A stretch of 64,000 nucleotides of DNA from Verrucomicrobiia bacterium. Its GTDB lineage: Bacteria > Omnitrophota > Omnitrophia > Omnitrophales > Aquincolibacteriaceae. Under the pieces are notes generated by a model. That model worked only from the letters and a program-made list of their open reading frames with translations, ran no database searches and was not told the DNA's origin. The stretch lies in NCBI GenBank assembly GCA_035495615.1, contig DATJFP010000026.1:15635-79634 (forward strand), given 5' to 3'. Shown in pieces: positions 555-45,612 of the stretch. Within the stretch, counting starts at the first letter, position 1, and every line of letters begins with the position of its first letter. The position numbers and the translations under genes are program-made.

Positions 555-1804
555 TCCGAAGCGTGGACGATTTTCCTTTCCACGGAATCAAAGACGTGGA
601 TGCAGTTGCGGCCCTGACGTTTGGATTCCAGAAGCGCCGCGTCCACCCACTTGATGAGAAAGTCGGTGTCGATCGTCGACTGAGGAATTTCCGTCGTGAC
701 ACCCAGGCTGATCGTAATGTGGAAAGAATCGCGCGACGGCATCACGACGACGAGGTCAGGGTCTTGCTCCACGCTCTGGCGCAGCTGCTCCGCGGCGCGC
801 ACGGCTTCGGGAAGCCTCTGCCCCGGCAGGATGATGCAGAATTCGTCGCCGCCGTAGCGGAAGATGAGATTGCGTTCGGAAAGCGTGTTCTTGACCTTGT
901 GCGCCACCAGCTGGAGGATGCGGTCGCCCTGCTGATGGCCGGCCAGGTCGTTGATGGTCTTGAAGCCGTCCACGTCGAACATGATCAAGGAGAAAACCTG
1001 CAGGCATTCTTTGTCTTTGTAAATCTCGTTGGTCAGCCAGCGGGTCATGTAGCTGCGGTTGTAAGCGCCGGTCAGCGTATCCACGAGCGCGAGCGTCTCC
1101 ACCCTCTCATAGGCGCGCTTCAGGCGGACCTGGTAATCCTGCAAGACGCGGTTTTCCCTCTCGGTCTCGCTTTTCAGCGTGAATTCTTTGAAGCGCATGG
1201 TCTCGTTCATGCGCGACGCGACCATGGAAACGAAGATGAAGAATAGCAGGTAGCTGTTGGACTTGATGAACCAGGCCCATTCCACTTCCTGGCGCCCGAG
1301 CACGATGCCGAGGGGATAGAAAATGTAGAGCGGCACGCATACGCTGGCCGTCGCCGCCGCGCCCCACGGCATCAAAAATCCCATAAGAATAAAAAACAGC
1401 GTGAACGTCACCATCTGGTCGAAGCCCGTCTGGACGTTGAGAATGCGCTGGAGCATGGTGGTGGCGCCGACGAAGATCGCAAGCATGATCGTAAATGCGT
1501 AGCAGCTCTTCCGGAACGGCGGCACGAAGCTGAAGACGCCGAAGCACAGCAGCAGCGCGCTCGAAACGAACTCGATCCGGACGGAAGGATTGATGTTCGG
1601 CGCGGCGTTCGTGTTCCATTCCGTGATGAACGAAATCATGTAAAGCAGGAACAGAAAAACGACGCAAAGACGGAAACGGGGCACGGCAAGCCGTTCGGTT
1701 TCCATCTCGAAGAACGACTTCACTTCGTCGTTGACGGTGGTCTGGGCCTGAAAAAAACGGACCAGATGGGCGGATGTTTTTTTGTTCGCTGCTGCCATGC
1801 GCAC
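533..1804 (-). CDS. membrane-anchored diguanylate cyclase (multi-TM N-terminus + GGDEF domain)
   Basis: 423 aa ORF. Hydrophobic N-terminal half, C-terminal RYGGDEF motif with upstream DVDGFKTINDLAGH. Confidence 0.85.
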   Translation of the reverse strand: MRMAAANKKTSAHLVRFFQAQTTVNDEVKSFFEMETERLAVPRFRLCVVFLFLLYMISFITEWNTNAAPNINPSVRIEFVSSALLLCFGVFSFVPPFRKSCYAFTIMLAIFVGATTMLQRILNVQTGFDQMVTFTLFFILMGFLMPWGAAATASVCVPLYIFYPLGIVLGRQEVEWAWFIKSNSYLLFFIFVSMVASRMNETMRFKEFTLKSETERENRVLQDYQVRLKRAYERVETLALVDTLTGAYNRSYMTRWLTNEIYKDKECLQVFSLIMFDVDGFKTINDLAGHQQGDRILQLVAHKVKNTLSERNLIFRYGGDEFCIILPGQRLPEAVRAAEQLRQSVEQDPDLVVVMPSRDSFHITISLGVTTEIPQSTIDTDFLIKWVDAALLESKRQGRNCIHVFDSVERKIVHASEWLRKTE

Positions 1805-1823
1805 GCTGCGGCAAAGCCGCGGA

Positions 1824-2420
1824 TTATTCTTCCGGTTTGGCCATTTCGGTTTTCATGCTTTTCGTGGTGACGCGGTCCAGGTACGCAAAATCATCGGTGT
1901 CAATGCGCACAAACTCGCCTGTTTTGACGAACTGCGGTACCAGGATTTTGAGGCCGTTCTCGAGCTCCGCCTCTTTGGAGGTTGCGCCGCCGCCCATGGG
2001 AGCAGGCGTGCTCGTCACCTGCAATTCCACGATCTTAGGGAAATCCACGCCGACCGCCTTTCCCTCGACGAAATCCACGCCGATCTCCGAATTCTCTTTG
2101 AGGAAAACCGACTGCTTCCCGACGGCCTTCTCCGGGAGGGAAAATTGCTCGTACGTTTCCATGTTCATGAACACGTACTGGTTCGCGTCTTTGTACGAGT
2201 ACTGCATTTTGACCCGATGCGACTCCAGCGTCTCGATTTTTTCTTCGGCCCGCAGGCTTTTCTCCATCATGTGGCCGTCTTCCAGCGATTTGAGCTTCAT
2301 GTGCATGGTCTTGCCGACCTTGCCGCTGCCTTTCATTTCCTGCGAAATCACCTTGCAGATTTTGCCTTCCAGATTCAGGACATTGCCGACTCTGAGATCC
2401 CCTGCCACCGCCATACGCAC
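1824..2420 (-). CDS. efp: elongation factor P
   Basis: 198 aa. KPGKG-like loop (MKGSGKVGKT) and overall EF-P architecture. Start may be the second Met (2414). Confidence 0.9.
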   Translation of the reverse strand: MRMAVAGDLRVGNVLNLEGKICKVISQEMKGSGKVGKTMHMKLKSLEDGHMMEKSLRAEEKIETLESHRVKMQYSYKDANQYVFMNMETYEQFSLPEKAVGKQSVFLKENSEIGVDFVEGKAVGVDFPKIVELQVTSTPAPMGGGATSKEAELENGLKILVPQFVKTGEFVRIDTDDFAYLDRVTTKSMKTEMAKPEE

Positions 2421-2433
2421 CTCCCTGACTTTT

Positions 2434-3243
2434 CTACAGCAGCTCCTTGTAATCGCGCCATGCGAACGGCGGAGCGCCGCAGACCACGAACTCCGGGTTG
2501 ACCATGTCTTCCCGGTTGTAACGCAAGAGGCCGCCTTCCGCCGTGGCCAGGCTTCCTCCCGCCTCGTTGACCACGCAATGCGCGGCCGCCGTATCCCACT
2601 CCATGGTCGGACTGAGCCGGGGATAAAAATTTGCCTTCCCCTCGGCCACGAGGCAAATCTTGAGCGCGCTTCCCATGCTGATCATGGACGCGTCCGGCAG
2701 CCGGGCCAAAAAGGCCTTGAGCCGTTCGTTCGTATGCGACCGGCTGGCCACGACAATGAGTCCGTCCTTGCGGTAGTCGGAAACAAAAAGGCGCGTTTCG
2801 CCGCCGTTTGCTTTCTTGTAAGCGCCCAAGCCTTGGGCCCCGCTGTACGTCATTCCAAGCACCGGCGCGTGAACGACACCGAGGACCGGATCGCCGCCGC
2901 GCACCAGCGCGATGTTCACTGTAAATTCGCCGTTGCGCTTGATGAATTCCTTGGTGCCGTCCAGAGGATCCACGAGCCAGCACTGGCTCCAGCCCCGCCT
3001 TTTTTCGTACGGAGGAACCGCGGACTCCTCCGAAATCACGGGAATGTCCGGAGAAATCCTGATCAATTCGCCTTGGATCAGCTCGTGCGCGGCCTGGTCG
3101 GCCTTGGTCAACGGCGAGTGATCTTCCTTAAAAGTCGTGCCAAAATCGCCGCCTTCGTAAATCGCTTTGATGGCTCTTCCCGCTTGTTCGGAAATTTCCA
3201 CCACGCGGCGGCGCAAAGCGTCTGTCAGTTCGATAATTTTCAT
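2434..3243 (-). CDS. cysQ: 3'(2'),5'-bisphosphate nucleotidase / inositol monophosphatase family (CysQ-like)
   Basis: WLVDPLDGTKEF metal-binding motif. Longer ORF to 3345 rejected because it overlaps tRNA-Gly. Start taken at MKIIELTDAL. Confidence 0.8.
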   Translation of the reverse strand: MKIIELTDALRRRVVEISEQAGRAIKAIYEGGDFGTTFKEDHSPLTKADQAAHELIQGELIRISPDIPVISEESAVPPYEKRRGWSQCWLVDPLDGTKEFIKRNGEFTVNIALVRGGDPVLGVVHAPVLGMTYSGAQGLGAYKKANGGETRLFVSDYRKDGLIVVASRSHTNERLKAFLARLPDASMISMGSALKICLVAEGKANFYPRLSPTMEWDTAAAHCVVNEAGGSLATAEGGLLRYNREDMVNPEFVVCGAPPFAWRDYKELL

Positions 3244-3311
3244 GATGACCTTGCCTATGGTTATCGGCCGGGAGGGATAAGGAGTGAAGACACCCTTTTG
3301 CATGGTAAATT

Positions 3312-3385
3312 TGGAGCGGGATACGGGAATCGAACCCGTGTCCATAGCTTGGGAAGCTATTGTACTACCATTGTACTAATCCCGC
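3312..3385 (-). tRNA. tRNA-Gly (anticodon CCC), CCA encoded
   Basis: Hand-folded: acceptor GCGGGAT/ATCCCGC, anticodon stem ATAGC/GCTAT with loop TTCCCAA, T-arm CGGGTTCGATTCCCG, 3' TCCA. Confidence 0.8.
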
Positions 3386-3455
3386 TTGAACTGCGAAGGC
3401 ATGCTGCGAGCCTATTTTATGCCGGGCGGCAGGAAAATAAAGGCTTTTTTCAGGA

Positions 3456-4424
3456 TCAAAAGACGGACAGCTTGCGGAAAAGATCGAGGCGCTCTTCAAT
3501 GTCGGAGCGCTTGATGCGGCGCAGCTTTTCAAGCCCGAAATCTTCGACGGCAAAGGAAGCGACCATGCTTCCGTAAGCCGCGGCTTTTTTGATGGCTTCG
3601 AAGCTGACTTCGCCCTGAGACGCGAGATATCCCATGAGACCGCCGGCAAAACTGTCGCCCGCTCCCGTGGGATCAAAGACGCCGTCCAGCGGATACGCCG
3701 GAAGGGCAAAGAAAAGATTGTCCCCCAATATCAGGACCCCGTGCTCGCCTTTCTTGATAATGACGTACTGCGGCCCCCATTCCCGGATCTTCCGCGCGGC
3801 CTTGATCAGGTTCGCCTCGCCTGTCAGCTGGCGCGCCTCGCCGTCATTCAATACCATCGCATCGACGCGGGCCATCACCTTAAGAAGCGCATCGCGCTGG
3901 CTGTCGATCCAGTAATTCATCGTGTCCATGGCCACGAATTTGAGCCGGGGTTTTTCCAGCTGGTCCAGGACTTTTGCCTGCAGATGCGGATCGATGTTCG
4001 CAAGAAAAATAAACGGCGGCTTATTTTCGAATTTGAGCACCGGATCGAAACCCGTGAGCACGTTCAAATGGGTCTCGAGCGTTTTGGCCGAGTTCATGTC
4101 ATGCTCGTAAAAGCCTTTCCAGGAAAACGTCTTTCCTTCGACGACCTGCAAATGGCTGAGGTCGATCGGATGCTCCTTGAGCACGGCGCGATATTCGTCG
4201 GGGAAATCCTTGCCGACCACGCCGACAAGCGCGACGGAAGTAAAAAAACTGGCGGCATAGGAGAAATAAGCCGCGGAGCCGCCGAAGACTTTTTCGCGGA
4301 CGCCGAACGGCGTCTTGATGTTATCGATCGCGACCGTGCCGATGACTGCGAGAGAATTAGGCGACCGCGGTGTTTTCACGGCAAGCGTCGATTTGTTCGC
4401 AAAGCTTTTTTGTGGCTGCATAAA
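3456..4424 (-). CDS. PfkB/ribokinase-family carbohydrate kinase (candidate heptose-7-phosphate kinase, HldA-like)
   Basis: DPTGAGDSFAGG PfkB signature. Start taken at MQPQKSF (internal Met). Context with gmhA and hldC suggests a heptose kinase but specificity is not provable from sequence. Confidence 0.65.
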   Translation of the reverse strand, partial: FMQPQKSFANKSTLAVKTPRSPNSLAVIGTVAIDNIKTPFGVREKVFGGSAAYFSYAASFFTSVALVGVVGKDFPDEYRAVLKEHPIDLSHLQVVEGKTFSWKGFYEHDMNSAKTLETHLNVLTGFDPVLKFENKPPFIFLANIDPHLQAKVLDQLEKPRLKFVAMDTMNYWIDSQRDALLKVMARVDAMVLNDGEARQLTGEANLIKAARKIREWGPQYVIIKKGEHGVLILGDNLFFALPAYPLDGVFDPTGAGDSFAGGLMGYLASQGEVSFEAIKKAAAYGSMVASFAVEDFGLEKLRRIKRSDIEERLDLFRKLSVF

Positions 4425-5034
4425 CGTCCTCCGCGTCGAAGATGGCGCGGACCACGGCAAAACGCCGCGCCCCGCAGGAATAAACCGATGAAAGATTGGA
4501 TGCGTCGATGCCCCCAATGGCGACAAAAGGCCGCGAAATCGCACGCGAAACTTCCCGGACAAGGCTCATACCGACCGGCTCGTACGCGGGTTTCGTCGGC
4601 GTCGAAAAAACGGGACCGACGCCGATGTAATCCACTTCTTCCGCCGCCGTACGAAGCGCCTGCTCGTAACTGTGCGTGGACTTGCCGAGAAACATTTCGG
4701 CGCCTGCCCTCCGCATCAAAGCGCTCACATCCGCGACCGGCATGTCGTCCTGGCCGATGTGAAGGCCGTCGGCCGACGTGGCAAGGGCAATGTCCAGGCG
4801 GTCATTCACAAAATAAAGTTTCCGGCAGCGGTCCGCGATTTCGCGGATCCGGCGCCCGCAGGCGACAAGCTCGCCGTCAGAGAGAGCCTTGGAACGCAGC
4901 TGCACGATGTCCGCGCCGCCGGCATAAGCCGCTTCCACCTTTTTGAAAAAAGAAACATCCCCCGCTTTGATGTCCGTCACCGCGTAAAGCCGGAAATTCC
5001 GGAACACTTCGCTTTTCCAACCGGTCATGGTCAT
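4357..5034 (-). CDS. thiE: thiamine-phosphate synthase
   Basis: 225 aa. LYAVTD, GADIVQLR, IGVGPVFSTPTK motifs typical of ThiE. Confidence 0.85.
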   Translation of the reverse strand: MTMTGWKSEVFRNFRLYAVTDIKAGDVSFFKKVEAAYAGGADIVQLRSKALSDGELVACGRRIREIADRCRKLYFVNDRLDIALATSADGLHIGQDDMPVADVSALMRRAGAEMFLGKSTHSYEQALRTAAEEVDYIGVGPVFSTPTKPAYEPVGMSLVREVSRAISRPFVAIGGIDASNLSSVYSCGARRFAVVRAIFDAEDVYAATKKLCEQIDACRENTAVA

Positions 5035-5523: not shown

Positions 5524-6099
5524 TCACGAACCGAAAAGCGTCGCTTCGACCACTTCCGAAACGGCATGCAGGCAGGTAATGTGCATTTCCTGGATGTGCG
5601 GGGTTTTGTCGGATTGGGCGCAGAAGCAGATGTCGGCGAACTTTTTCATTTGCCCGCCGCTCCGGCCCGTGAACGCAATCGTGACCAGCCCCTGAGCTTT
5701 GGCCTTTTCCATCGCCAGAAGCACGTTTTTGGAATTGCCACTCGTGGAAATCCCGATCAGGATGTCGCCTTTCTGGCCGAGGCCTTCCACCTGGCGGGCA
5801 AAAACGACTTCATAATTATAGTCGTTTGCCAGCGCGGTCAGGATGGACGAATCCGTGGTGAGCGCGATCGCGGGCAGGCTCCGTCTTTCCAGCTTGAAGC
5901 GCGCGATGAACTCCGCGGCAATGTGCTGGGAATCCGCCGCGCTTCCGCCGTTACCGCAAAGCAGCAGCTTGTTCCCGGAACGGAAGGCGCGCAGAATTTC
6001 TTTCGCGACTTTTTCCAGCACGGCCACATGCTCGGGAACGAACGTCTTTTCAACGGCGTCCCGGTGATCGTCAAGAATTTGTCCAAGGGGCTTGATCAT
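5524..6099 (-). CDS. gmhA: D-sedoheptulose 7-phosphate isomerase
   Basis: 191 aa SIS-domain protein. LCGNGGSAADSQH and GISTSGNS motifs. Confidence 0.85.
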   Translation of the reverse strand: MIKPLGQILDDHRDAVEKTFVPEHVAVLEKVAKEILRAFRSGNKLLLCGNGGSAADSQHIAAEFIARFKLERRSLPAIALTTDSSILTALANDYNYEVVFARQVEGLGQKGDILIGISTSGNSKNVLLAMEKAKAQGLVTIAFTGRSGGQMKKFADICFCAQSDKTPHIQEMHITCLHAVSEVVEATLFGS

Positions 6100-20149: not shown

Positions 20150-20223
20150 TGGGCGGTACAGGACTCGAACCTGTGACCCCCACCATGTCAAGGTGATGCT
20201 CTAACCAACTGAGCTAACCGCCC
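20150..20223 (-). tRNA. tRNA-Val (anticodon GAC)
   Basis: Hand-folded: acceptor GGGCGGT/ACCGCCC, D-arm GCTCAGTTGGTTAGAGC, anticodon stem TCACC/GGTGG with loop TTGACAT, T-arm ACAGGTTCGAGTCCTGT. CCA not encoded. Confidence 0.8.
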
Positions 20224-36683: not shown

Positions 36684-37412
36684 TTAGGCGGGGACGGAAA
36701 TGGACGGAGGATCAATACGAAGACGATATCCCACGGCGGGCTCCGTGAGAATATAAATAGGACGCGCCGGGTCGGGCTCGAGTTTCTTGCGCAGGTTATA
36801 AATAACGACACGCAAAAGATGGTCCATCCGATGGACACTCTGATCATTATTCCAAACTTGTTTGTAGAGCTGCTCCGTTCTGACGATTTTACCCGCGCTC
36901 AAAACCAGGGCCTTCAGCACATCGTATTCCGTCGGCGTGAGATGCTGCGTGCGGTCCCCGACTTTGACGATACGCTGCTCGCCATCGAAAACAAGTTCGC
37001 CGGTCTTGAAAATCGGAGTTCCGCCTTTCGGCAGCCAGCGGCGCATGAGCGCTCGAACGCGGGCTAGAAACTCCGAAGGGCTGAAGGGCTTGGTGACATA
37101 GTCGTCGGCGCCTGCGTCAAGCGCCGCCACTTTATCCGCTTCGTCTCCGCGGACCGAGAGAATCATGATGGGTGTAGCCGCGCGCTGGCGTATCTCTCTG
37201 GCCACCTCGACTCCGCTGATATCGGGCAGTTTCAAATCCAGAATAATCGCATCAGGATGCGCTTTTACCGCGGCTTTCAAAGCCGCGCGGCCGTTAGCCG
37301 CTTCAAAGGTGCGGTACCCCTGGGATTGGAGCATTCTTTTGAGAACGCGCCTCAGCGGACGTTCGTCATCCACGATCAAAATACGCACCCCGTCTTTTTT
37401 AGGCCTAAGCAT
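36684..37412 (-). CDS. OmpR-family response regulator, KdpE-like (pair 1)
   Basis: Receiver domain (ILIVDDE...DLKLPD...DYVTKPF) plus winged-helix output (LTPTEYDVL, GYRL). Confidence 0.8.
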   Translation of the reverse strand: MLRPKKDGVRILIVDDERPLRRVLKRMLQSQGYRTFEAANGRAALKAAVKAHPDAIILDLKLPDISGVEVAREIRQRAATPIMILSVRGDEADKVAALDAGADDYVTKPFSPSEFLARVRALMRRWLPKGGTPIFKTGELVFDGEQRIVKVGDRTQHLTPTEYDVLKALVLSAGKIVRTEQLYKQVWNNDQSVHRMDHLLRVVIYNLRKKLEPDPARPIYILTEPAVGYRLRIDPPSISVPA

Positions 37413-38541
37413 GGGGCTTCTCGATGCAAAAAGGCAATTCCACAATCATTTTCGTCCCCTTTTCCGGCAGATTTTCGGCCCAGATTTTTCCTTGGTGCGC
37501 CTCAACAATTCCTTGGCAAATCGAGAGGCCGAGACCTGTACCCGGAATTTTCTGCGTTCGTTCACCGCGGTAGAACTTATCAAAGATACGATGCAATTCC
37601 CGTTCCGGAATGCCCGGGCCCTCGTCAGAAATTTCAATACGGACGCTTTGCATCGAGGTTTTGATCTCGAGCAAAACCAAAGAACCCCTGGGCGAATACT
37701 TCAGGGCATTGTCGATCACATTGACTAAGACTTTCAGCATCAGGTCGTAGTCGACGCAGGCTTCCGGGAGCTCATCCGGAAGAAGGACGCGCACACGATA
37801 TCCTTCCTCCCCCCGGGATAACTGCTGCAATGCCACTCCGATGAGATCGCTTAAGTCGCATGGTTTCCGGGTCAGCTCTAAAATGCCTCCCTCGACCTTG
37901 GTCATGTCCAATAAATTTTCAACGAGCTGACTGAGTCTCCCCGCCTCCGCGTTGGCTGTCGTAATGAGCTGCCGGCGGGAGGATTCATCCAGGTCCATGT
38001 TGTGGTGCATCAGATTCCCCAGGGCCGCAGTGATCGAGGACAACGGCGTTTTTAGATCATGAGAGATCGAGTTCAACAAAGTTGAATACAGTTTCTCCTT
38101 CTCCCGCAAAAGCTCCATCTGCTGAGTTTTCATGAGGCTGCGTCGGAGGCGCGTCGTCAAAGTGCTGATCGTGATTCCTACAATCAAGAATCCGGCCAGG
38201 GTGACGAAATCGTGCTGACTGAATGTGGCGAAGCTGAATTGCGGCGGGATGAAAAGGTAATCAAAAGCCAGCACGCTGGCGATCGAAGAGGCGATTGCGG
38301 GGCCACGGCCCCATTTGAGCGCAATAATTACGACCCCTAAGAGATAAAAAATAATGAGGTCGGTTGTGATCAGAAAGGCTTTGGCATAGGCAATCCAACC
38401 CGCAAGAAAAGCCGCTGCCACCAACATCAGGCTCAGGATATATGGCATGACGCGATCGGTTTTTTTTCCACCCCACTTCATGGTCATGAGAGCCCCTACG
38501 GATCGATAATTGTATCGAACGTCAGGGAAAGAAAATATCAA
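37405..38541 (-). CDS. sensor histidine kinase, KdpD C-terminal type (4-TM + HisKA + HATPase only)
   Basis: TM block LAFDYLFIPPQFSFATFSQHDFVTLAGFLIVG matches the KdpD membrane domain. LLNSISHDLKTPL H-box. No N-terminal KdpD/Usp domain and no GAF linker. Confidence 0.8.
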   Translation of the reverse strand: MIFSFPDVRYNYRSVGALMTMKWGGKKTDRVMPYILSLMLVAAAFLAGWIAYAKAFLITTDLIIFYLLGVVIIALKWGRGPAIASSIASVLAFDYLFIPPQFSFATFSQHDFVTLAGFLIVGITISTLTTRLRRSLMKTQQMELLREKEKLYSTLLNSISHDLKTPLSSITAALGNLMHHNMDLDESSRRQLITTANAEAGRLSQLVENLLDMTKVEGGILELTRKPCDLSDLIGVALQQLSRGEEGYRVRVLLPDELPEACVDYDLMLKVLVNVIDNALKYSPRGSLVLLEIKTSMQSVRIEISDEGPGIPERELHRIFDKFYRGERTQKIPGTGLGLSICQGIVEAHQGKIWAENLPEKGTKMIVELPFCIEKPHA

Positions 38542-38654: not shown

Positions 38655-39728
38655 ATGCAGAGACAAGACTCGCCGATCAAATATCATTTTATCTGGCACG
38701 GTTATGCCCAGAGCCTTCTCATGGTGGTTCTGGTCACGCTTGGCGGGGAACTACTCAAGCGCACGATCGAGCCCATCAACCTTATCATGTTCTATCTTTT
38801 GGCCGTGATCGTCGCGGGCATCCGCTGGGGCCACGGCCCCGCTGTCCTGACTTCCGTTCTGAGCGTGCTTGCCTTTGATTTTTTTCTCATCCCTCCCTAT
38901 CTGACTTTCGGCGTCGAAGATTTCCAGTACGTCTTTACCTTCGCGGGTTTTCTCATTGTAGGTCTGATCACAAGCGAACTGATGACAAAAACAAAGGAGC
39001 AGGCGCGCAAAGCGCGGCAATTGGAACTGCTTCGAGCGACAAAAAAACTGCAGACAGCGCTCCTCAATTCAGTCTCGCACGACTTGCGCACGCCGCTGGC
39101 TTCGATCATCGGATCCATCAGCATGCTCCTGCAAGACGAGCCTTCCCTCGCCGAAGAAACCATAAAGGGGCTGCTCCGGGACGCCTATGGGGAATCGCTG
39201 CGCTTGAATCGCTTGGTCGGGAACCTCCTCGACATGACGCGGCTTGAAGCCGGCGCTCTGAATCTTTCTTTTAAATCCTGCGATTTAAGAGACGTGCTCG
39301 GCGTGGCTTTGCAGGAGCTCGCCGACAAATTGGAGCAGCGCCGAATTAAAACCCAGATCCCTCACGACCTCCCGGAAATCAGCGCGGACTTTTCTTTGAT
39401 CATGAAGGTGCTCGTGAATTTAATCGATAATGCGGCGAAATATTCGTCTGAGGACACACCGATCCGCATTGCCGCCAAAACGCAGGGCGACCGGATTAAA
39501 ATTGAAATCATGGACGAGGGAATTGGAATTGCCCCCAAAGACTTGAAACCTATCTTCGACAAATTTTACCGCGCTTCCCATCCGTCGACGGTCGAGGGTC
39601 TCGGGCTTGGGCTCTCGATAGCGAAAGGAATCGTGGAGGCGCATCATGGCGAAATCTGGGCGGAAAGCGGCGCGGGAAAAGGGACGACATTCGTCGTGCT
39701 TTTGCCTTACTCCAAGGAGACCGCATGA
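38655..39728 (+). CDS. sensor histidine kinase, KdpD C-terminal type (pair 2, paralog of 37405-38541)
   Basis: LAFDFFLIPPYLTFGVEDFQYVFTFAGFLIVG TM block. LLNSVSHDLRTPL H-box. About 50% identical to the divergent paralog. Confidence 0.8.
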   Translation: MQRQDSPIKYHFIWHGYAQSLLMVVLVTLGGELLKRTIEPINLIMFYLLAVIVAGIRWGHGPAVLTSVLSVLAFDFFLIPPYLTFGVEDFQYVFTFAGFLIVGLITSELMTKTKEQARKARQLELLRATKKLQTALLNSVSHDLRTPLASIIGSISMLLQDEPSLAEETIKGLLRDAYGESLRLNRLVGNLLDMTRLEAGALNLSFKSCDLRDVLGVALQELADKLEQRRIKTQIPHDLPEISADFSLIMKVLVNLIDNAAKYSSEDTPIRIAAKTQGDRIKIEIMDEGIGIAPKDLKPIFDKFYRASHPSTVEGLGLGLSIAKGIVEAHHGEIWAESGAGKGTTFVVLLPYSKETA

Positions 39729-40426
39729 AGGAGCAGCACGCCTTGCGCGCGTTGATTGTCGATGACGAGAAGGCCTTGCGCCGTTTTCTCAAGACCGCAC
39801 TGTCGTCCCACGGCTATCAAGTGTTCGAAGCCGGCAACGGCCTAGAGGCCCTCGAAGAATCCGTATCCTGCCATCCCGACGTCATCATCATCGACCTGGG
39901 CCTGCCCGACAAGGACGGCATCGAGGTCACGCGCGAGATCCGCCGGCGCACGAAGACGCCCATCATCATTTTGTCGGTGCGCGACCGCGAAGAGGACAAA
40001 ATCCAGGCGCTCGACGCGGGCGCGGACGACTACCTCACCAAGCCTTTCAGCGCAGGCGAATTGATGGCGCGTCTGCGGGCCGTCATCCGCCGCCTAGTTC
40101 CGCAAAACGAAACCACATTTTTTAAAGCCGGCAAATTAGCGATCGATATCGGCAAGCACACGGTGGAATTAAACGGCCGCGCCCTCCAGCTCTCGCCGAC
40201 CGAATTCGACATCGTTAAAGTGCTGGTCATGAACGCCGGAAAAGTCGTGACTCAAAAGCAGATCTTGAAAGAAGTCTGGAACAAAACCGAAGAAATGGAA
40301 GGGGCTTCCCATCTTCTCCGCGTCACCATCAGCAATCTGCGCAACAAAATCGAGCCCAATCCCGACCGTCCCACCTATCTTCTCACCGAGCCGGGCGTGG
40401 GATACCGCCTTCATACCGAAGATTGA
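39725..40426 (+). CDS. OmpR-family response regulator, KdpE-like (pair 2)
   Basis: ALIVDDEKALRRFL...DLGLPDKDG...DYLTKPF receiver. LSPTEFDIVKVL...GVGYRL winged helix. ATGA overlap with upstream kinase. Confidence 0.85.
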   Translation: MKEQHALRALIVDDEKALRRFLKTALSSHGYQVFEAGNGLEALEESVSCHPDVIIIDLGLPDKDGIEVTREIRRRTKTPIIILSVRDREEDKIQALDAGADDYLTKPFSAGELMARLRAVIRRLVPQNETTFFKAGKLAIDIGKHTVELNGRALQLSPTEFDIVKVLVMNAGKVVTQKQILKEVWNKTEEMEGASHLLRVTISNLRNKIEPNPDRPTYLLTEPGVGYRLHTED

Positions 40427-40459
40427 TTTGAAAGATTTTCCGCTTACCCATTTCCTCTT

Positions 40460-40504
40460 TTGACTCTCTTTTGACTTGGCCTTCCTTTGCCTCACGGCTA
40501 TCTT
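40460..40504 (+). promoter_or_regulatory. activator-type promoter: 11-bp-phased direct repeat TTGACTC-N4-TTGACTT, then TATCTT -10 element 22 nt downstream, no canonical -35
   Basis: Same architecture with identical spacings recurs at 43682-43726, upstream of the second riboswitch. Confidence 0.35.
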
Positions 40505-40514
40505 TTGCATAGAT

Positions 40515-40695
40515 CGAACAAGCCGAATCCGGATGACGGATCGGGGGACCCAGAGAAGGCTCCGGAGCTCGATGCTTCGGGGCGATAAGCAGCTCGAAAC
40601 TTGGTGTTTTTAGCTATCGGGGCGAATCACTGCAAAGTGAAAGGTTTCCACTCGACCTTAGCCCGACAGCTAACCCCGTAGGCGAAACGGAGAGA
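40515..40695 (+). promoter_or_regulatory. c-di-AMP riboswitch (ydaO/kimA class) in leader of ptsN-like/kimA operon
   Basis: GAAUCCGGAUGACGGAUCGGGGGACCCAG ... GGGGCGAAUC ... GUUUCCACUC ... AGCCCGACAGCUAACCCCGUAGGCGAAACGGAGAG. Conserved blocks remembered from the ydaO motif (GAAUC, ACGG..GGGGGACCCA, GGGGxGAAUC, CCCGAAGG-GCAA-like 3' end). Confidence 0.75.
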
Positions 40696-40796
40696 ACTGT
40701 GCACCGCATTTTCGAACCGCGCTTTTCAATCCTTTCCGTTTCCCCTGGTTTCACCGCCGAAGCGTTCCGCGCAGACGGGCTTTCAAGGAGGACGCC

Positions 40797-41381
40797 ATGG
40801 TTTCACTCATCGTGTTAGGAGGAGCAAAAATGCTGTCGTTTCGAAAGCAAAGGCAGGAAACATCATTAAGGCGCGGGCAGGCCGCCGCGAATCAGAGCTT
40901 AGGCCAAGCGGCGTTAAAAATTTCCGACTACCTGACGTCCGAACAGATTTGTTTTTTCCCCGAGGGAACAAACGCGCTCAGGGTATTCTCGGATTTGATA
41001 GGCACTCTCTCGATACCAAACCGGGAGTTCGCTTTGGAAGCCGTTCTTCGCAGGGAACAAGTCGGCGGGACGATCGTGGCTCCGGGAATCGCGCTTCCCC
41101 ATGCTCGGATTGACGGCACGGACCGGTTGCATTCGGCTCTCGCTCTTTGCCCAAGCGGTATCAAGCTCAGCGAAGACGAACCGGCGATCCGCCTGCTCCT
41201 CCTTTTTGTCAGCCCTTTTACCGAACTGAAAAACCACTTACGCTTTCTGGCCGCGGCAGCAGCTTTATTTCAAGACGAAATGCTTTGCGGCGACATGATC
41301 GCGCTGAAGTCGAGCGATGCCATTTTGGAAAAACTAAAACACAAAGAAATGAAAACCCATGCCGAACATTCCACAAAATAA
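40797..41381 (+). CDS. PTS EIIA type-2 protein, EIIA(Ntr)/PtsN-like
   Basis: ALEAVLRREQVGGTIVAPGIALPHARIDG...LLLLFVSPFTELKNHLRFL aligns with E. coli PtsN around the phosphorylatable His (GIAIPHG). AGGAGG RBS 7 nt upstream. Confidence 0.75.
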   Translation: MVSLIVLGGAKMLSFRKQRQETSLRRGQAAANQSLGQAALKISDYLTSEQICFFPEGTNALRVFSDLIGTLSIPNREFALEAVLRREQVGGTIVAPGIALPHARIDGTDRLHSALALCPSGIKLSEDEPAIRLLLLFVSPFTELKNHLRFLAAAAALFQDEMLCGDMIALKSSDAILEKLKHKEMKTHAEHSTK

Positions 41382-43389
41382 GTCGGTCCCTCGAAACGTC
41401 GTCATTGTGACGACCGCCATGCTGAGCTTTATCAGTTTCTGGCGGGCCGCCGCGATCGTGCTTTGCGATATTGCCTCCACGGTTTATTACATCGGCGGCA
41501 TTGCCGAGCATGCCATCGGAAAAGCCGCTCCGTGGTTTATTTTGGGCGTGATGCTCTTTTCCTACACGGTACGCGCCATTTACATCGAGTCTTGCGGCAT
41601 GTTTGTCCGCGGCGGCGTATACCGCGTCGTCAAGGAGGCTATGGGAGGAACGCTCGCCAAACTTTCCGTCTCGGCCCTGATGTTTGACTATGTCTTGACC
41701 GGGCCCATCAGCGCGGTTTCGGCAGGCCAATACATGGTCGGCCTTTTGAACACGACGTTTCCACACTTCGGCTTACCGTGGCATTTTCGCGCTGATATTT
41801 TTTCCGTTTTGTTCGCCGTCGCCGTCACGCTCTATTTCTGGTGGGAAAACGTTAAAGGCATTCCCGAGTCGAGCGACAAAGCCCTCAAAATCATGATCGC
41901 CACGACGATCATGGGCATCACCATGATCATTTGGAGCGTGACGACGCTCCTCGTGCGAGGCATCCACTGGCCCCCTTTCACTCCCGTCTTTAACGAAGAC
42001 TCGCTGGGCTGGCTGTATTCTCTGAAAGACAAGATCAAACCTCTGGGCGTCCTCGGCCTCACCATCGCCTTCGGCCATTCGCTGCTCGCCATGTCCGGCG
42101 AAGAATCCCTTGCCCAGGTCTACCGGGAAATCAAAGCGCCCAAGCTCAAGAATCTCGAAAAAGCAGCCTTCATCGTCTTTCTCTACAGCATGCTGTTGAC
42201 CACGCTGGGAAGTTTTTTCGCGATCATGATCATTCCCGATTCCGTGCGCATGAGCCAATACTCCGACAATCTGATAAGCGGCCTTGCGATGTATTTCGTC
42301 GGCCCGCTCCAACTCAGACTCCTTTATCAAGCCTTCGTGGTCTTCGTCGGATTTTTAATTCTTGCCGGCGCGGTGAATACGTCCATTATCGGGTCGAACG
42401 GGGTCCTCAATCGGCTGGGAGAAGACGGCATCCTGCCCGAGTTCCTCAGAAAGCCTCATGCCCGTTTCGGCACGTCTTCGCGGCTCATCAATATGACAGT
42501 AGGACTTCAACTGCTGACGATCGTACTCTGCCGGGGGAATATTTACGTGCTCGGTGAGGCCTATGCCTTCGGCGTCATCTGGAGCTTCGTATTCAAGGCC
42601 CTGGCCGTCCTCATCCTCCGCTATAAAGACAAGATGCCGCGCGAATGGAAAGTGCCCTTGAATATCAAAATCAAAGGCCTGGAATTCCCGGTCGGAATCG
42701 CCGCTATTTTTCTGATCCTTCTCCTTACCGCCAGCGCGAACCTTGTGACGAAAAAGGTCGCCACAATTTCCGGCTCCCTTTTTGCCCTTGTCTTTTTTGC
42801 CGTATTTGTGGCTTCGGAAAAGATCAACAAGCGGAAGCATCATGCCCTTCATGGCCAGCATGACATTCACGCGGGCCACATCGACCGGGTCAATCTGAAT
42901 GAGATCGAAAATCTCAGCCCCGAAAGTTGCGGCTGCACGAAACCCCGAAGGGTCATTGTTGCCGTACGAGGCCCGCACAGCCTCAGCCATCTCGAAAAAA
43001 CGCTCCATCAGATCCATCCGGAAGACACCGATGTCGTGGTGCTGACTTCGAAAGTCGGCAAGGGCTACCAGTTGGAAGGCGATTTGAGCCGTGTCGCGCC
43101 GGAGGAAGAAAAGCTCTTTACCCGCGTGATTGAAGTGGCAGAGAAAGTCGGCCGAACCGTCATCCTGCTGTCGGTCCCGACGAACGATCCTTACTACGTG
43201 ATGGCGCGCATCGCGCACGAGTTAAAAGCGCAGGAACTCGTGGTCGGAAAATCTGAAAAATTTTCCCCCGAAGTTCAGATGGAGGAAATCGCGATTGCCT
43301 GGGGCGCCGTGACGCCGCCGCGCCAGCATGTGCCGCCTCTGATGATTCGGATTCTGTGGGATGGGAAAGAAATGACCGAAATGTTCTAA
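41359..43389 (+). CDS. kimA: KimA-family K+ importer (APC superfamily) with C-terminal cytoplasmic Usp-like domain
   Basis: 676 aa, 12-TM APC fold. SGEESLAQV region corresponds to KimA SGVEAISN. C-terminal RRVIVAVRGPHSLSHLEK...VVVLTS...VILLSVP resembles the B. subtilis KimA cytoplasmic domain. Preceded by ydaO-class riboswitch. Confidence 0.75.
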   Translation: MPNIPQNKSVPRNVVIVTTAMLSFISFWRAAAIVLCDIASTVYYIGGIAEHAIGKAAPWFILGVMLFSYTVRAIYIESCGMFVRGGVYRVVKEAMGGTLAKLSVSALMFDYVLTGPISAVSAGQYMVGLLNTTFPHFGLPWHFRADIFSVLFAVAVTLYFWWENVKGIPESSDKALKIMIATTIMGITMIIWSVTTLLVRGIHWPPFTPVFNEDSLGWLYSLKDKIKPLGVLGLTIAFGHSLLAMSGEESLAQVYREIKAPKLKNLEKAAFIVFLYSMLLTTLGSFFAIMIIPDSVRMSQYSDNLISGLAMYFVGPLQLRLLYQAFVVFVGFLILAGAVNTSIIGSNGVLNRLGEDGILPEFLRKPHARFGTSSRLINMTVGLQLLTIVLCRGNIYVLGEAYAFGVIWSFVFKALAVLILRYKDKMPREWKVPLNIKIKGLEFPVGIAAIFLILLLTASANLVTKKVATISGSLFALVFFAVFVASEKINKRKHHALHGQHDIHAGHIDRVNLNEIENLSPESCGCTKPRRVIVAVRGPHSLSHLEKTLHQIHPEDTDVVVLTSKVGKGYQLEGDLSRVAPEEEKLFTRVIEVAEKVGRTVILLSVPTNDPYYVMARIAHELKAQELVVGKSEKFSPEVQMEEIAIAWGAVTPPRQHVPPLMIRILWDGKEMTEMF

Positions 43390-43400
43390 GCGAGAAAAGG

Positions 43401-43685
43401 ATGGATTTCTTTTTAAAATTCACTCTCATCTCTTATGCCTCGATTTTCTTTTTCACACTGGGATTGCGCCTGGCTGTTTCCAGCGAATTGGACTTGCGGG
43501 TCATCCAACTTTTTCTTATTTTTGCCGCTGTCTCGCTTCCTTTGTCTCTGACCTTCAAATCCCAGCCTTTGTATAGCCGTTTTCTGATGTCCCTGACCTG
43601 CACCTCCCTCATTCTGACCGGTTTCCGTTTCGGCAGGAAAATAAAGCGTTTGGGTGAAGAAAATCCCCTCAAACGTCATTTTTGA
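43401..43685 (+). CDS. small 3-TM membrane protein ending ...GFRFGRKIKRLG (paralog of 45622-45891)
   Basis: 94 aa. RBS GAAAAGG. Shares FFLxFxLxSYAxIFFFxxGL...FKSxPL...GFRFGRKI with the ORF following the second kimA. Confidence 0.5.
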   Translation: MDFFLKFTLISYASIFFFTLGLRLAVSSELDLRVIQLFLIFAAVSLPLSLTFKSQPLYSRFLMSLTCTSLILTGFRFGRKIKRLGEENPLKRHF

Positions 43686-43736
43686 CTCGTTTTTGACTCG
43701 TCCAATGCCCTCTCCCCGAGTATTTTGTCACGATTA

Positions 43737-43880
43737 ACGACAAGCCGAATCCCGACAGGGATCGGGGGACCCGATAAAGCGGCTCTCAAAGTTTTGAGCC
43801 ATGGGCGAATCCGCCGGAGCGCGGAGAGGTTTCCACTCAACCTCAGCCCGTCAGCTAACCCCGAAGGCGCAACGGAGAGG
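43737..43880 (+). promoter_or_regulatory. c-di-AMP riboswitch (ydaO/kimA class), second copy, abutting the kimA2 start codon
   Basis: ACAAGCCGAAUCCCGACAGGGAUCGGGGGACCCGA ... GGGCGAAUCC ... GUUUCCACUC ... AGCCCGUCAGCUAACCCCGAAGGCGCAACGGAGAGG. Co-linear with the first copy. The conserved 3' AACGGAGAGG contains the RBS for ATG at 43885. Confidence 0.75.
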
Positions 43881-43884
43881 TGTT

Positions 43885-45612
43885 ATGTCTTTGATGCTCA
43901 AAAAAGTCGATCGCCCGCGCGAATTGAAGTGGTATCAGGCGGGCGCCATGCTGTACGGCGATTGGGGAACCAGCAAGGCCTATGTGCTTGGCATCGCCTT
44001 CGCTCTTGCCGGCCACGCTTCCTGGTTTTTCCTCGGCCTCATGTCCGCGCTTACGGCCCTCATCGGCGTCTGCTACATGGTGATTTGCCGCGTGTATCCG
44101 GACGGCGGCGGCGTTTATTCTTCCGTGAAGCATCGCCACCGCCTGCTCGCGGTGATCGGCGCGTTTCTTTTGATCGCGGATTACGTGATTACCGCGTCGC
44201 TCAGCACGCTCGACGCCTTCCATTATTTCAACGCGCCGCATCCGGAAATCTGGGCCGTGGCCACGATCCTCGTCATCGGCGCCATCAACTGGCTCGGGCC
44301 CAGCAAATCCAGCACGATCGCGTCTTACATCGCCGTCGTGGCCTCGGCGGGCGCCCTGATTCTTTTCGCGGCAACCGTTCCCTCGCTCTCCCATGTGCAT
44401 CTGACCTGGCCCGGCAGCGACTGGCCCAAAAATTGGACGGTTTTCGTCGGCATCGTGCTCGCGCTTTCCGGCGTGGAAGCCATTGCCAACATGACGGGCA
44501 TCATGGAAGAGCCCGTCGAAAAAACATCCAAGCGCGCGATCTGGCCCGTGCTCCTGGAAGTTTCCGTGCTGACCTTTCTGCTTGGCATTGCCATGAATGC
44601 CATCCCGAACCTCAAAGACCATACCGAAGACATGCTCCGCGTCCTGGCCACGCATTATATCGGGCCTTGGTACGGCGCCTTCATCTCGCTCGCGTTCGGC
44701 TTCCTGCTGCTTTCGGCGACCAACACCGCCATCGGCGACCTGGTCAGCATCCAGTTTTTGATGGCCAAAGACCGCGAGCTGCCCGAAGCTTTCTCAAAGC
44801 TAAACCGCTTTGGCATGCCGGGCCTTGCGCTGATCATCGCCACGGCGATCCCCGCGGGCGTTTTAATCTTCGAGCACGATCTGGTTAAACTCGCGGCACT
44901 CTATGCCATCGGCGTGATCGGTGCCATCACGATCAATCTCGGCGCCTGCGCGACCAACTTCAAGATCCCGCTGAGCCGGAAGGAACGCATCCTCCTCGGC
45001 ATCGGCGCGGTCATCCTTTTTTTTATTGAATTGACGATCGCCTTCGAAAAGCACCACGCCCTGATTTTCGCGCTCACGGTCCTCGCGGTCGGATTGTCGC
45101 TGCGCTATGCCGCCAAGACGTTCCTGCCGATTCCGGTGCCGGCGCTTGCGCCCACGGTCAATCTGCTCACCGTTTCCGAAGCCAGAGAAATAGCGCCGCT
45201 TTACAAAAGCTCGTCGCTTGTCGCGATCCGCAGCTTTAATCCCGCGGTGCTCGACGAAGCCGCGCTGCGCGTGAAGGCCCTCAAGGAAAACGCGGTTTAT
45301 TTGAGCTACATCGAGGAAACTCCCACCGTGGCGGAATTGCCGGATGAAATCGAACCGTCCTCTCACTCCCTCGAAGTCCTGGGAGAGGCTCAGAAGGCCA
45401 TGGAGGAACGCGGGGTCACCGGCATCCCGGTCTGGCAGATCGGCGATGATCCCGGCCGCATGATCGCCAAAGCCGCGGCCGAACTTGGAGTCAATACGGT
45501 CATGATCGGGACGACGAGGCGCAGCGCGCTGGTCAACCTTCTCCGCGGCGACGTGCTGCGAACGCTCGCCCGTCATTTACCCAGAGAATGCCGCCTGGTG
45601 ATCAGCGGCTAG
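43885..45612 (+). CDS. kimA: KimA-family K+ importer, second paralog
   Basis: CYMVICRVYPDGGGVYSSVKH matches KimA YRQIIYAYPQGGGAYIVSKE. LALSGVEAIANMTG matches SGVEAISN. C-terminal Usp-like domain. Start moved from ORF-track 43801 to 43885 to clear the riboswitch. Confidence 0.8.
   Translation: MSLMLKKVDRPRELKWYQAGAMLYGDWGTSKAYVLGIAFALAGHASWFFLGLMSALTALIGVCYMVICRVYPDGGGVYSSVKHRHRLLAVIGAFLLIADYVITASLSTLDAFHYFNAPHPEIWAVATILVIGAINWLGPSKSSTIASYIAVVASAGALILFAATVPSLSHVHLTWPGSDWPKNWTVFVGIVLALSGVEAIANMTGIMEEPVEKTSKRAIWPVLLEVSVLTFLLGIAMNAIPNLKDHTEDMLRVLATHYIGPWYGAFISLAFGFLLLSATNTAIGDLVSIQFLMAKDRELPEAFSKLNRFGMPGLALIIATAIPAGVLIFEHDLVKLAALYAIGVIGAITINLGACATNFKIPLSRKERILLGIGAVILFFIELTIAFEKHHALIFALTVLAVGLSLRYAAKTFLPIPVPALAPTVNLLTVSEAREIAPLYKSSSLVAIRSFNPAVLDEAALRVKALKENAVYLSYIEETPTVAELPDEIEPSSHSLEVLGEAQKAMEERGVTGIPVWQIGDDPGRMIAKAAAELGVNTVMIGTTRRSALVNLLRGDVLRTLARHLPRECRLVISG

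Follow-up and report, generated by a model that had tools for sequence, protein, structure and literature searches.

Among riboswitches of the cyclic di-adenosine monophosphate (c-di-AMP; ydaO/yuaA) class, those of Thermoanaerobacter are close described counterparts of the element reported here. This element, copy 2, is the second of two such riboswitches on a stretch of 64,000 nucleotides (nt) of contig DATJFP010000026.1 (assembly GCA_035495615.1), hereafter the window, to which all coordinates refer unless another locus is named. In Thermoanaerobacter pseudethanolicus, nt 125–130 in the riboswitch tail pair with nt 83–88, and the resulting long-range pseudoknot forms a cap over ligand site 2 (PMC11963983). 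In this species and in T. tengcongensis, the pseudoknot sequesters the Shine-Dalgarno sequence (SD), and mutants of the pseudoknot or the SD abolish repression by c-di-AMP, as found with reporters and single-molecule fluorescence resonance energy transfer (PMC11963983, Sci Adv 2025). The ydaO (kimA) riboswitch of Bacillus subtilis is summarised in PMC9960051 as acting through an intrinsic terminator. For the c-di-AMP riboswitch of Corynebacterium glutamicum nlpC, reporter data point to control at the level of translation, and pairing of CUCC with GGAG has been proposed as a pseudoknot that involves the ribosome-binding site (RBS; PMC9960051).

Copy 2 shares with the Thermoanaerobacter riboswitches the Rfam class, the seven-helix aptamer, an SD inside the established or predicted pseudoknot of P7 loop and tail, a start codon within a few nt and the lack of a terminator; the ligand switches expression off there and would do so here. 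The two differ in the pseudoknot, which has 6 bp in Thermoanaerobacter and a predicted 5 bp plus an A·A mismatch in copy 2, and in the host: Thermoanaerobacter is a firmicute, whereas copy 2 stems from a metagenome-assembled genome (MAG) of the Planctomycetes-Verrucomicrobia-Chlamydiae (PVC) group (Verrucomicrobiae/Omnitrophota). With B. subtilis ydaO, the founder of the Rfam family, copy 2 has in common the aptamer and ligand class, presumably the OFF direction, and the position upstream of a probable K+ importer of the APC fold. However, copy 2 lacks the terminator of ydaO, and the protein that it would regulate is only ~18% identical to KimA, which is below the family thresholds. As in C. 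glutamicum nlpC, no terminator is present and an SD-pairing pseudoknot is proposed, although the nlpC riboswitch regulates a cell-wall peptidase and copy 2 a transporter. The principle of an RBS within a pseudoknot is also found in preQ1-II/III, SAM-II, SAM-V and SAM/SAH riboswitches, in which the pseudoknot helix holds the RBS without a separate platform; their folds and ligands are unrelated to those of the c-di-AMP class. Taken together, we consider it likely that copy 2 senses c-di-AMP and turns translation off in response, without a separate expression platform. For this reading we infer ligand binding, the direction of the response, K+ as the transported ion and the role of the upstream boxes.

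In a cmscan search of the whole window, copy 2 (43733–43884, plus strand) matched Rfam RF00379, the c-di-AMP (ydaO/yuaA) riboswitch, with 76.3 bits (E = 6e-16) at a gathering score of 38. The match spans the full model (positions 1–134 of 134), and every upper-case consensus position is matched in the alignment. The core nucleotides of both half-sites are intact (GCCGAAUCC...CGGGGGACC and GGGCGAAUCC...CCGUCAGCUAACCCCG). With helix coordinates taken from the Rfam structure line (Table 1), all helices of the pseudo-two-fold P1–P7 architecture form, and the only non-canonical pair is A·G at the outer end of P1. The preliminary description of this locus, made without database searches, had proposed a second, paralogous c-di-AMP riboswitch with the pseudo-symmetric ydaO fold at 43737–43880, and had left a covariance-model search as the check. 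Its coordinates lie inside the RF00379 match, copy 1 was recovered at 75.1 bits, and the blocks it had listed as shared (ACAAGCCGAAUCC, GAUCGGGGGACCC, GUUUCCACUC and AGCCCG.CAGCUAACCCCG.AGGCG.AACGGAGAG) occur in both copies without any difference.

A covariance model was built from the single sequence of copy 2 and the structure derived from Rfam, and sequences were aligned to it with Infernal, because MAFFT misaligned P5 and P6 of the two copies. The broad sample comprised 80 riboswitches from metagenomes, chosen by a core pattern that left the P7 loop and the tail unconstrained. On this alignment, helix pairing was found in 96.1% of the cells, compared to 34–49% with the partners slid, and 21 of the 30 helix pairs show double (compensatory) changes. 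In 12 relatives from the PVC clade, pairing amounts to 94.6%, with compensatory changes in 15 of the 30 pairs. As judged from its sequence and predicted structure, copy 2 is certainly a true aptamer of the c-di-AMP class and would as such be expected to bind the ligand. Four further, weak matches of the copy 2 model (E = 1e-6 to 1e-2, Table 1) were excluded. They share the tail GUUGCAGAUUG, behind which lie a terminator and the gene of a TerC-like membrane protein, and probably belong to another, yybP-ykoY-like riboswitch class outside the c-di-AMP class.

GGAGAGG, the tail of the aptamer, precedes UGUU (43881–43884) and ATG (43885–43887), which places the start codon 4 nt past GAGG, exactly as first described, and 7 nt past GGAG. 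GGAGAGG coincides with the conserved GaGaGg in the unpaired 3' flank of the Rfam consensus, and its pairing with the canonical anti-SD is predicted at −7.8 kcal/mol. SD-like tetramers are enriched before long open reading frames (ORFs) in the window (23 of 75, compared to 11.6% at random positions), indicating that the organism uses SD-dependent initiation. The SD and the predicted 3' strand of the pseudoknot share the same six nucleotides. No intrinsic terminator was found on the plus strand between 43700 and 44500, a region reaching from the aptamer into the early ORF. Copy 2 thus has the layout of the type with the SD in the pseudoknot, i.e. an SD overlapping the strand, normal spacing to the start and no terminator. 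In a sample of 72 non-redundant riboswitches selected by the core, the start codon of a long ORF lies at most 13 nt from the pseudoknot 3' strand in 50, a clear pattern even with the somewhat higher rate of chance ORFs at high GC content. Translational control through an SD in the pseudoknot is already published for this class and is frequent in it, hence neither new nor rare.

In the register homologous to that of the relatives, CC.CUC of the P7 loop pairs with GAG.GG of the tail, giving 5 bp around the A·A mismatch at −4.9 kcal/mol (RNAduplex). The mismatch is common to copy 2, copy 1 and locus L211, and in all members of the clade the CUC/GAG core is paired with the centre of the SD. Loop and tail covary across the broad sample, with combinations such as CUCUUUC/GAAAGAG, CUCCUU/AAGGAG, CGUCUCA/UGAGACG, CUUUUC/GAAAAG, GUUCCU/AGGAAC and CUCGUC/GACGAG. 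The duplexes of the loops with their own tails reach −8.65 kcal/mol, compared to −7.45 ± 0.22 kcal/mol for permuted tails, and none of 5000 permutations attained the observed value. Within the clade, the pairs are CCUUUC/GAAAGG (L078), CCUUUC/GGAAGG (L079), UCCUUC/GGAGGG (L209), UCCUC/GAGGA (L210 and L027) and UUUCUC/GAGAGG (L021). On the basis of this comparison, the tail of copy 2 would supply the 3' strand of the pseudoknot that, together with the P7 loop, defines the class. An alternative register, UUCC/GGAG (−4.0 kcal/mol), which is the best one for copy 1, was rejected as the homologous register for copy 2 because the relatives have a loop strand that stops 1 nt short of the P7 3' strand.

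At least one independent genome keeps the direct arrangement. Locus L201 encodes the closest relative of the regulated protein (84% identity) in a different genomic context and has the layout of copy 2: tandem boxes come first, and the riboswitch, whose last position is 4500, directly adjoins the ATG at 4501. The distance from GGAG to AUG is 7 nt as in copy 2, despite a diverged tail (GGAGGCUUGUC); P2 and P6 have also diverged, and P4 is absent. The preliminary description had placed the SD in the conserved 3' end of the aptamer and had deduced direct translational gating from it. The predicted role of the tail as pseudoknot strand and the layout kept in L201 are in line with this view.

Since the tail would serve as both pseudoknot strand and SD, folding induced by the ligand should hide the SD and turn translation off. 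The transcript would start near 43733 from a promoter with tandem TTTTGAC boxes. At high c-di-AMP, as expected in K+-replete or high-turgor cells, two ligand molecules would lock the pseudo-symmetric aptamer, and CCACUC of the P7 loop would pair with GAGAGG, the core of the only SD before ATG 43885. Only 15 nt separate the 3' strand of P1 from the ATG, such that the aptamer, once folded, would exclude the 30S subunit and the transporter would not be made. At low c-di-AMP, the pseudoknot would be open and the tail single-stranded, such that translation could begin.

Several observations weigh against this mechanism. The pseudoknot of copy 2 is no better than the same loop paired with unrelated tails, and that of L201 is reduced to CUC/GAG (about −3.3 kcal/mol). 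A general weakening of pseudoknots that double as SD was considered and rejected, since the direct types in the broad sample have a mean of −9.2 kcal/mol, compared to −7.6 kcal/mol for the others. The weakness is therefore specific to the lineage of copy 2, and the strength of direct types in general leaves it unexplained. In minimum free energy (MFE) folding, the leader of copy 2 is no more stable than shuffled sequences (z = −1.1), no clear ON-state structure is obtained, and predictions for the unconstrained ensemble show the AUG as paired. In a survey of 80 orthologue loci, nearly all from Omnitrophota MAGs, the covariance model found a riboswitch directly upstream in five (three by an exact-motif screen), leaving ~75 without one. 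Of the six closest relatives looked up individually, five (P0003, P0004, P0005, P0007 and P0010) yielded no riboswitch.

The weak pseudoknot bears first on the possibility that the aptamer is functional and represses independently of pairing between pseudoknot and SD, which we regard as rather unlikely. Repression would then result from a steric block of the 30S subunit by the ligand-stabilised P1/P3 core, or from a transcriptional or decay output (Rho termination, RNase attack), and the SD-like tail would merely be the conserved tail of the aptamer. This would account for the weak pseudoknots of copy 2 and L201, and the 3' strand of P1 does lie within the usual 30S footprint. Against it stand the pairing of CUC/GAG with the centre of the SD throughout the clade and the loss of regulation in pseudoknot and SD mutants of the Thermoanaerobacter homologue (PMC11963983). 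In addition, an effect of Rho or decay would follow from a block of translation and not replace it.

Distinctly less probable is that copy 2 is a duplicate in decay or without a regulatory function, in which the aptamer-like sequence persists while the tail is just a constitutive SD and the control is exerted by the boxes and the response regulator. Compared to copy 1, P2 reads UCCC/GGGA instead of UCCG/CGGA (one compensatory pair) and P6 CCGC/GCGG instead of CACU/AGUG (three compensatory pairs), while P4 is a 20-nt hairpin instead of a ~57-nt insert; the P7 loop and the tail core are the same. These compensatory differences, which the preliminary description had suggested looking for, indicate paralogues under structural selection and not a fresh duplication. 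The differences in P2, P3 and P6 from copy 1 and L201 are compensatory and again point to structural selection, all conserved core nucleotides of copy 2 are intact, and its Rfam score equals those of copy 1 and the relatives (63–83 bits). These findings stand against decay, although the weakened pseudoknot, the lack of a riboswitch at most orthologues and the situation in L001 (80% identity), where the orthologue has the boxes and the KdpE-like regulator but lacks a riboswitch, would fit it.

The ORF downstream of copy 2 encodes 575 amino acids (aa). Of more than 6000 homologues, the best 120 are almost all 571–578 aa long, with N-termini that conform to M-x3-4-LK[KR]V[ED]RPRELKW; the 575-aa product agrees in length and N-terminus with homologues of 573–577 aa. 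Translation was placed at ATG 43885 because both lengths and N-termini fit there, so that the start first assumed is backed by more than 100 homologues and by L201. The in-frame ATG 43801 inside the aptamer, which would give a 603-aa ORF (43801–45612), was rejected as spurious on the same grounds. A naive gene caller could annotate this longer ORF instead of the 575-aa product. A start at the in-frame ATG 43894 (MLKKVDRP...), 13 nt from the tail and hence with a poor SD, is very improbable. An MLK[KR]V start is indeed seen in some homologues (e.g. L008 and L047), but most carry 3–5 residues ahead of LK[KR], L201 keeps the equivalent of the first ATG with identical spacing, and 43881–43894 holds no other purine-rich element, such that the same SD would serve either start.

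Table 1 Positions of the features discussed, in the window or in the locus named
Feature	Position	Strand	Basis
P1 of copy 2	43743-46/43866-69	+	Rfam structure line
P2 of copy 2	43750-53/43758-61	+	Rfam structure line
P3 of copy 2	43762-67/43859-64	+	Rfam structure line
P4 of copy 2	43781-85/43796-800	+	Rfam structure line
P5 of copy 2	43803-05/43847-49	+	Rfam structure line
P6 of copy 2	43811-14/43821-24	+	Rfam structure line
P7 of copy 2	43827-30/43840-43	+	Rfam structure line
Pseudoknot 5' strand CCACUC, P7 loop	43833-43838	+	register homologous to relatives
Pseudoknot 3' strand GAGAGG	43875-43880	+	register homologous to relatives
Shine-Dalgarno GGAGAGG	43874-43880	+	sequence
Predicted LeuT/APC-fold transporter with C-terminal Usp-like domain, 575 aa	43885-45612	+	Pfam, AF2/Foldseek, motifs
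Small membrane protein, 89 aa	45622-45891	+	paralogue of 109-aa ORF 43356-43685
Tandem direct repeats TTTTGAC-N4-TTTTGAC, 11-bp periodicity, copy 2 side	43680-43697	+	motif scan
Tandem direct repeats TTTTGAC-N4-TTTTGAC, copy 1 side	40458-40475	+	motif scan
-10-like hexamer TATTTT, copy 2	43721-43726	+	read from sequence
-10-like hexamer TATCTT, copy 1	40499-40504	+	same 41-nt offset from boxes
Riboswitch copy 1	40511-40699	+	Rfam RF00379, 75.1 bits
Unit 1: PtsN-like EIIA gene	40797-41381	+	Pfam/NCBIfam
Unit 1: AA_permease_2 protein, 676 aa, after the EIIA gene		+	Pfam/NCBIfam
Unit 1: small membrane protein, 109 aa, at the end of the unit	43356-43685	+	
KdpE-like regulator gene, immediately upstream of unit 1	39725-40426		
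KdpD-C-terminal-type histidine kinase, beside the regulator	37405-38541	-	
KdpD-C-terminal-type histidine kinase, divergent from the former	38655-39728	+	
Possible leader ORF behind copy 1 (GUG 40699)	40699-40818		
Possible leader ORF, L211 (ATG 2343)	2343-2414		
Possible leader ORF, L209 (UUG 1146)	1146-1208		
Possible leader ORF, L021 (ATG 1729)	1729-1800		
Possible leader ORF, L027 (ATG 5928)	5928-5999		
Excluded cross-match, L011	958-1091		covariance model
Excluded cross-match, L017	1258-1385		covariance model
Excluded cross-match, L026	1982-2118		covariance model
Excluded cross-match, L041	1885-2019		covariance model
CTATTGATTGTCTG..CTTCTGCTATATTA motif	~45 to 10 nt before orthologue ATG		sequence
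tRNA gene	3315-3385	-	Rfam RF00005, 71.8 bits
tRNA gene	20150-20223	-	Rfam RF00005, 69.4 bits

Among the relatives that carry a riboswitch, the region behind it varies. It is followed by an intrinsic terminator in L008, L078 and L079, and by a leader of ~75 nt in L021 and L027. The three relatives of unit 1, the operon behind copy 1 (L209, L210 and L211), all carry boxes and an RF00379 riboswitch, and L210 has the direct layout for the EIIA unit, with GAGGA, 8 nt and then the EIIA ATG. The scattered presence among the orthologues indicates that the riboswitch is readily gained and lost. Many riboswitch-less Omnitrophota orthologues (including those in L009, L013, L015, L017, L020, L038, L040, L041, L050, L073 and L075) share the motif CTATTGATTGTCTG..CTTCTGCTATATTA, which ends ~10 nt before the ATG, without an SD. 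Its conservation and position suggest a promoter for a leaderless or near-leaderless mRNA. In L072, from a MAG labelled Planctomycetia, a c-di-AMP riboswitch (1039–1215) and an intrinsic terminator precede a genuine KimA homologue (1269–3248).

For the 575-aa protein, Pfam reported Usp alone (residues 455–566) and NCBIfam only a sub-threshold match to an arginine/ornithine antiporter; every KimA, K_trans and APC sequence threshold was failed. KimA in the PDB (6S3K) was matched neither by the single sequence (phmmer) nor by the family profile, the best PDB profile match of the family being ApcT (E = 1.3e-3). As a positive control, the KimA homologue in L072 matched 6S3K at 1e-62. Membership in the KimA family by sequence was rejected, given that no significant family match was obtained. 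The AlphaFold2 (AF2) model of the protein has a mean confidence (pLDDT) of 67 and a predicted template-modelling score (pTM) of 0.57, with transmembrane helix 1 (TM1) poorly modelled. Nevertheless, its top three Foldseek matches in the PDB are all KimA structures (8b70, 8b71 and 6s3k; E = 2e-13 to 1e-11), aligned over ~610 columns and both the membrane and the cytoplasmic domains with a TM score of 0.58–0.60 and 17–19% identity.

The K+/H+ symporters of the KimA/KUP type (PDB 6S3K and 8B70; PMC6994465, PMC10284832) are thus the best structural match, and the D-Y-x-x-T and G-V-E-A motifs are shared. The K+/H+ residues D117, T121 and E233 of KimA sit in these motifs (PMC6994465). KimA residues D36, Y43, D117, T121, S125 and E233 were compared. 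ADY100VIT103ASLS107 and GVE198AIAN of the 575-aa protein line up with their counterparts in the L072 homologue, and LYGDWGTSKAY (D26, Y33) was matched by eye to the IYGD motif of KUP, the TM1 consensus of which is [IV][FY]GD. The protein differs from KimA/KUP in the lack of a significant sequence-family match and in a C-terminal domain that scores as Usp. From the structural model and the motifs, a remote KimA/KUP-like transporter whose C-terminal domain resembles Usp is the most fitting description; the provisional name kimA2 is only loosely right, being unsupported by the sequence and in line with the predicted fold. The protein is a probable K+ importer, K+ being the likely substrate because a riboswitch is present and KdpD/KdpE-type genes are adjacent.

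Riboswitch-less orthologues in L203, L206, L207 and L208 adjoin amtB, glnB (P-II), the glutamine synthetase gene glnA and GlnE/GlnD genes, together with genes for a sigma-54 activator and arginine decarboxylase. In view of this context of nitrogen metabolism, the substrate may be K+ or NH4+/amines. The transporter gene in the window is followed by that of an 89-aa small membrane protein without a Pfam or NCBIfam family match, which is 43% identical (E = 4e-21) to the 109-aa small hydrophobic protein at the end of unit 1. A small hydrophobic protein of 84–109 aa trails each riboswitch-controlled transporter; in L210, an 84-aa gene (3179–3433) occupies the same position. The two transporters in the window (575 and 676 aa) are 24% identical.

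Copy 1 precedes unit 1 with a leader of 97 nt, in which no terminator was predicted. The EIIA start at ATG 40797 is supported by synonymous differences from L209 across MVSLI[IV]LGG. An NCBI protein identical to the EIIA product (P0121) is named 'PTS sugar transporter subunit IIA [Verrucomicrobiae bacterium]', and the relatives of the transporter are almost all from Omnitrophota. MFE folding of the leader was uninformative (z = −0.5). In the predicted fold of 40680–40830, the tail GAAACGGAGAG pairs with CCUUUCCGUUU, ~45 nt downstream, as an 11-bp helix, and with the tail withdrawn the UCCUUU segment of this partner is predicted to pair with an AGGAGG SD. These predicted pairings point to an anti-SD relay, and copy 1 probably acts on translation too, only indirectly. 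The contrast that the preliminary description drew between the copies holds for the 97-nt leader; it is weakened by the absence of a terminator, the predicted relay and a start codon 4 nt past the copy 1 tail.

This codon, GUG 40699, opens a possible leader ORF. In each of the five long-leader members, exactly one start codon lies 3–8 nt past the tail and opens 20–39 codons (Table 1), the leader ORF having 23 codons in three of them, and those of L021 and L027 stop 4 nt ahead of the main ATG. In shuffled sequences, such frames occur with frequencies of 0.08–0.30 each, corresponding to a joint probability of about 1e-4 to 7e-4. The pattern suggests that a leader ORF is gated by c-di-AMP in the long-leader members, while the pyrimidine-rich anti-SD segments alone could explain the open frames. 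An interplay of riboswitches and upstream ORFs (uORFs) is known for the B12 riboswitches of Mycobacterium tuberculosis (PMC11260477).

Exactly two matches to TTTTGAC-N4-TTTTGAC occur in the window, compared to 0.05 expected. Each starts 53 nt ahead of a riboswitch and 41 nt ahead of a TATNTT hexamer. The −10-like hexamer of copy 2 was not reported by a strict sigma-70 scan; from its position, the transcript probably starts near 43733. The boxes recur before orthologues in L001 (4462–4479), L201 (~4318–4337), L209, L210 and L211, and in L001 they follow the regulator gene without a riboswitch. Two 7-nt direct repeats with a periodicity of 11 bp are typical of binding sites of the OmpR/PhoB family. 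Of the genes upstream of unit 1, both kinases have DUF4118, HisKA and HATPase_c domains and lack the N-terminal KdpD sensor domain. The boxes are probably the operator of the neighbouring KdpE-like regulator. We infer that the two-component system would activate transcription and that c-di-AMP would veto translation.

A possible, though rather doubtful, generalisation is that the SD-like tail in the PVC clade always marks a real start site. It would belong to the transporter or EIIA gene itself in the direct members (copy 2, L201 and L210), and to a gated leader ORF that opens or couples to the main RBS in the long-leader members (copy 1, L209, L211, L021 and L027), with the KdpE-like operator on top. 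If true, copies 1 and 2 would be two stages of one mechanism that differ in whether the leader ORF is still there or has been deleted, and the c-di-AMP class would stand beside the B12 riboswitches (PMC11260477) as ligand-gated controllers of uORFs. The KdpE-like operator would then add two-input control of two K+ importer operons.

Current understanding of the class is not overturned by these results, and the leads with most promise are the pattern of possible leader ORFs and the tandem TTTTGAC boxes. The published mechanism with the SD in the pseudoknot would be extended to an uncultured lineage of the PVC group and to an uncharacterised subfamily of KimA/KUP-like transporters. Within one gene family, the riboswitch comes with a direct SD, with an intrinsic terminator or with a long leader that may hold a leader ORF, and in other members it is missing altogether; this provides a comparative set for the turnover of expression platforms. 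The protein family has more than 6000 members that bear no annotation beyond 'amino acid permease', and the riboswitch gives a functional hint towards a role in K+ or osmotic homeostasis.

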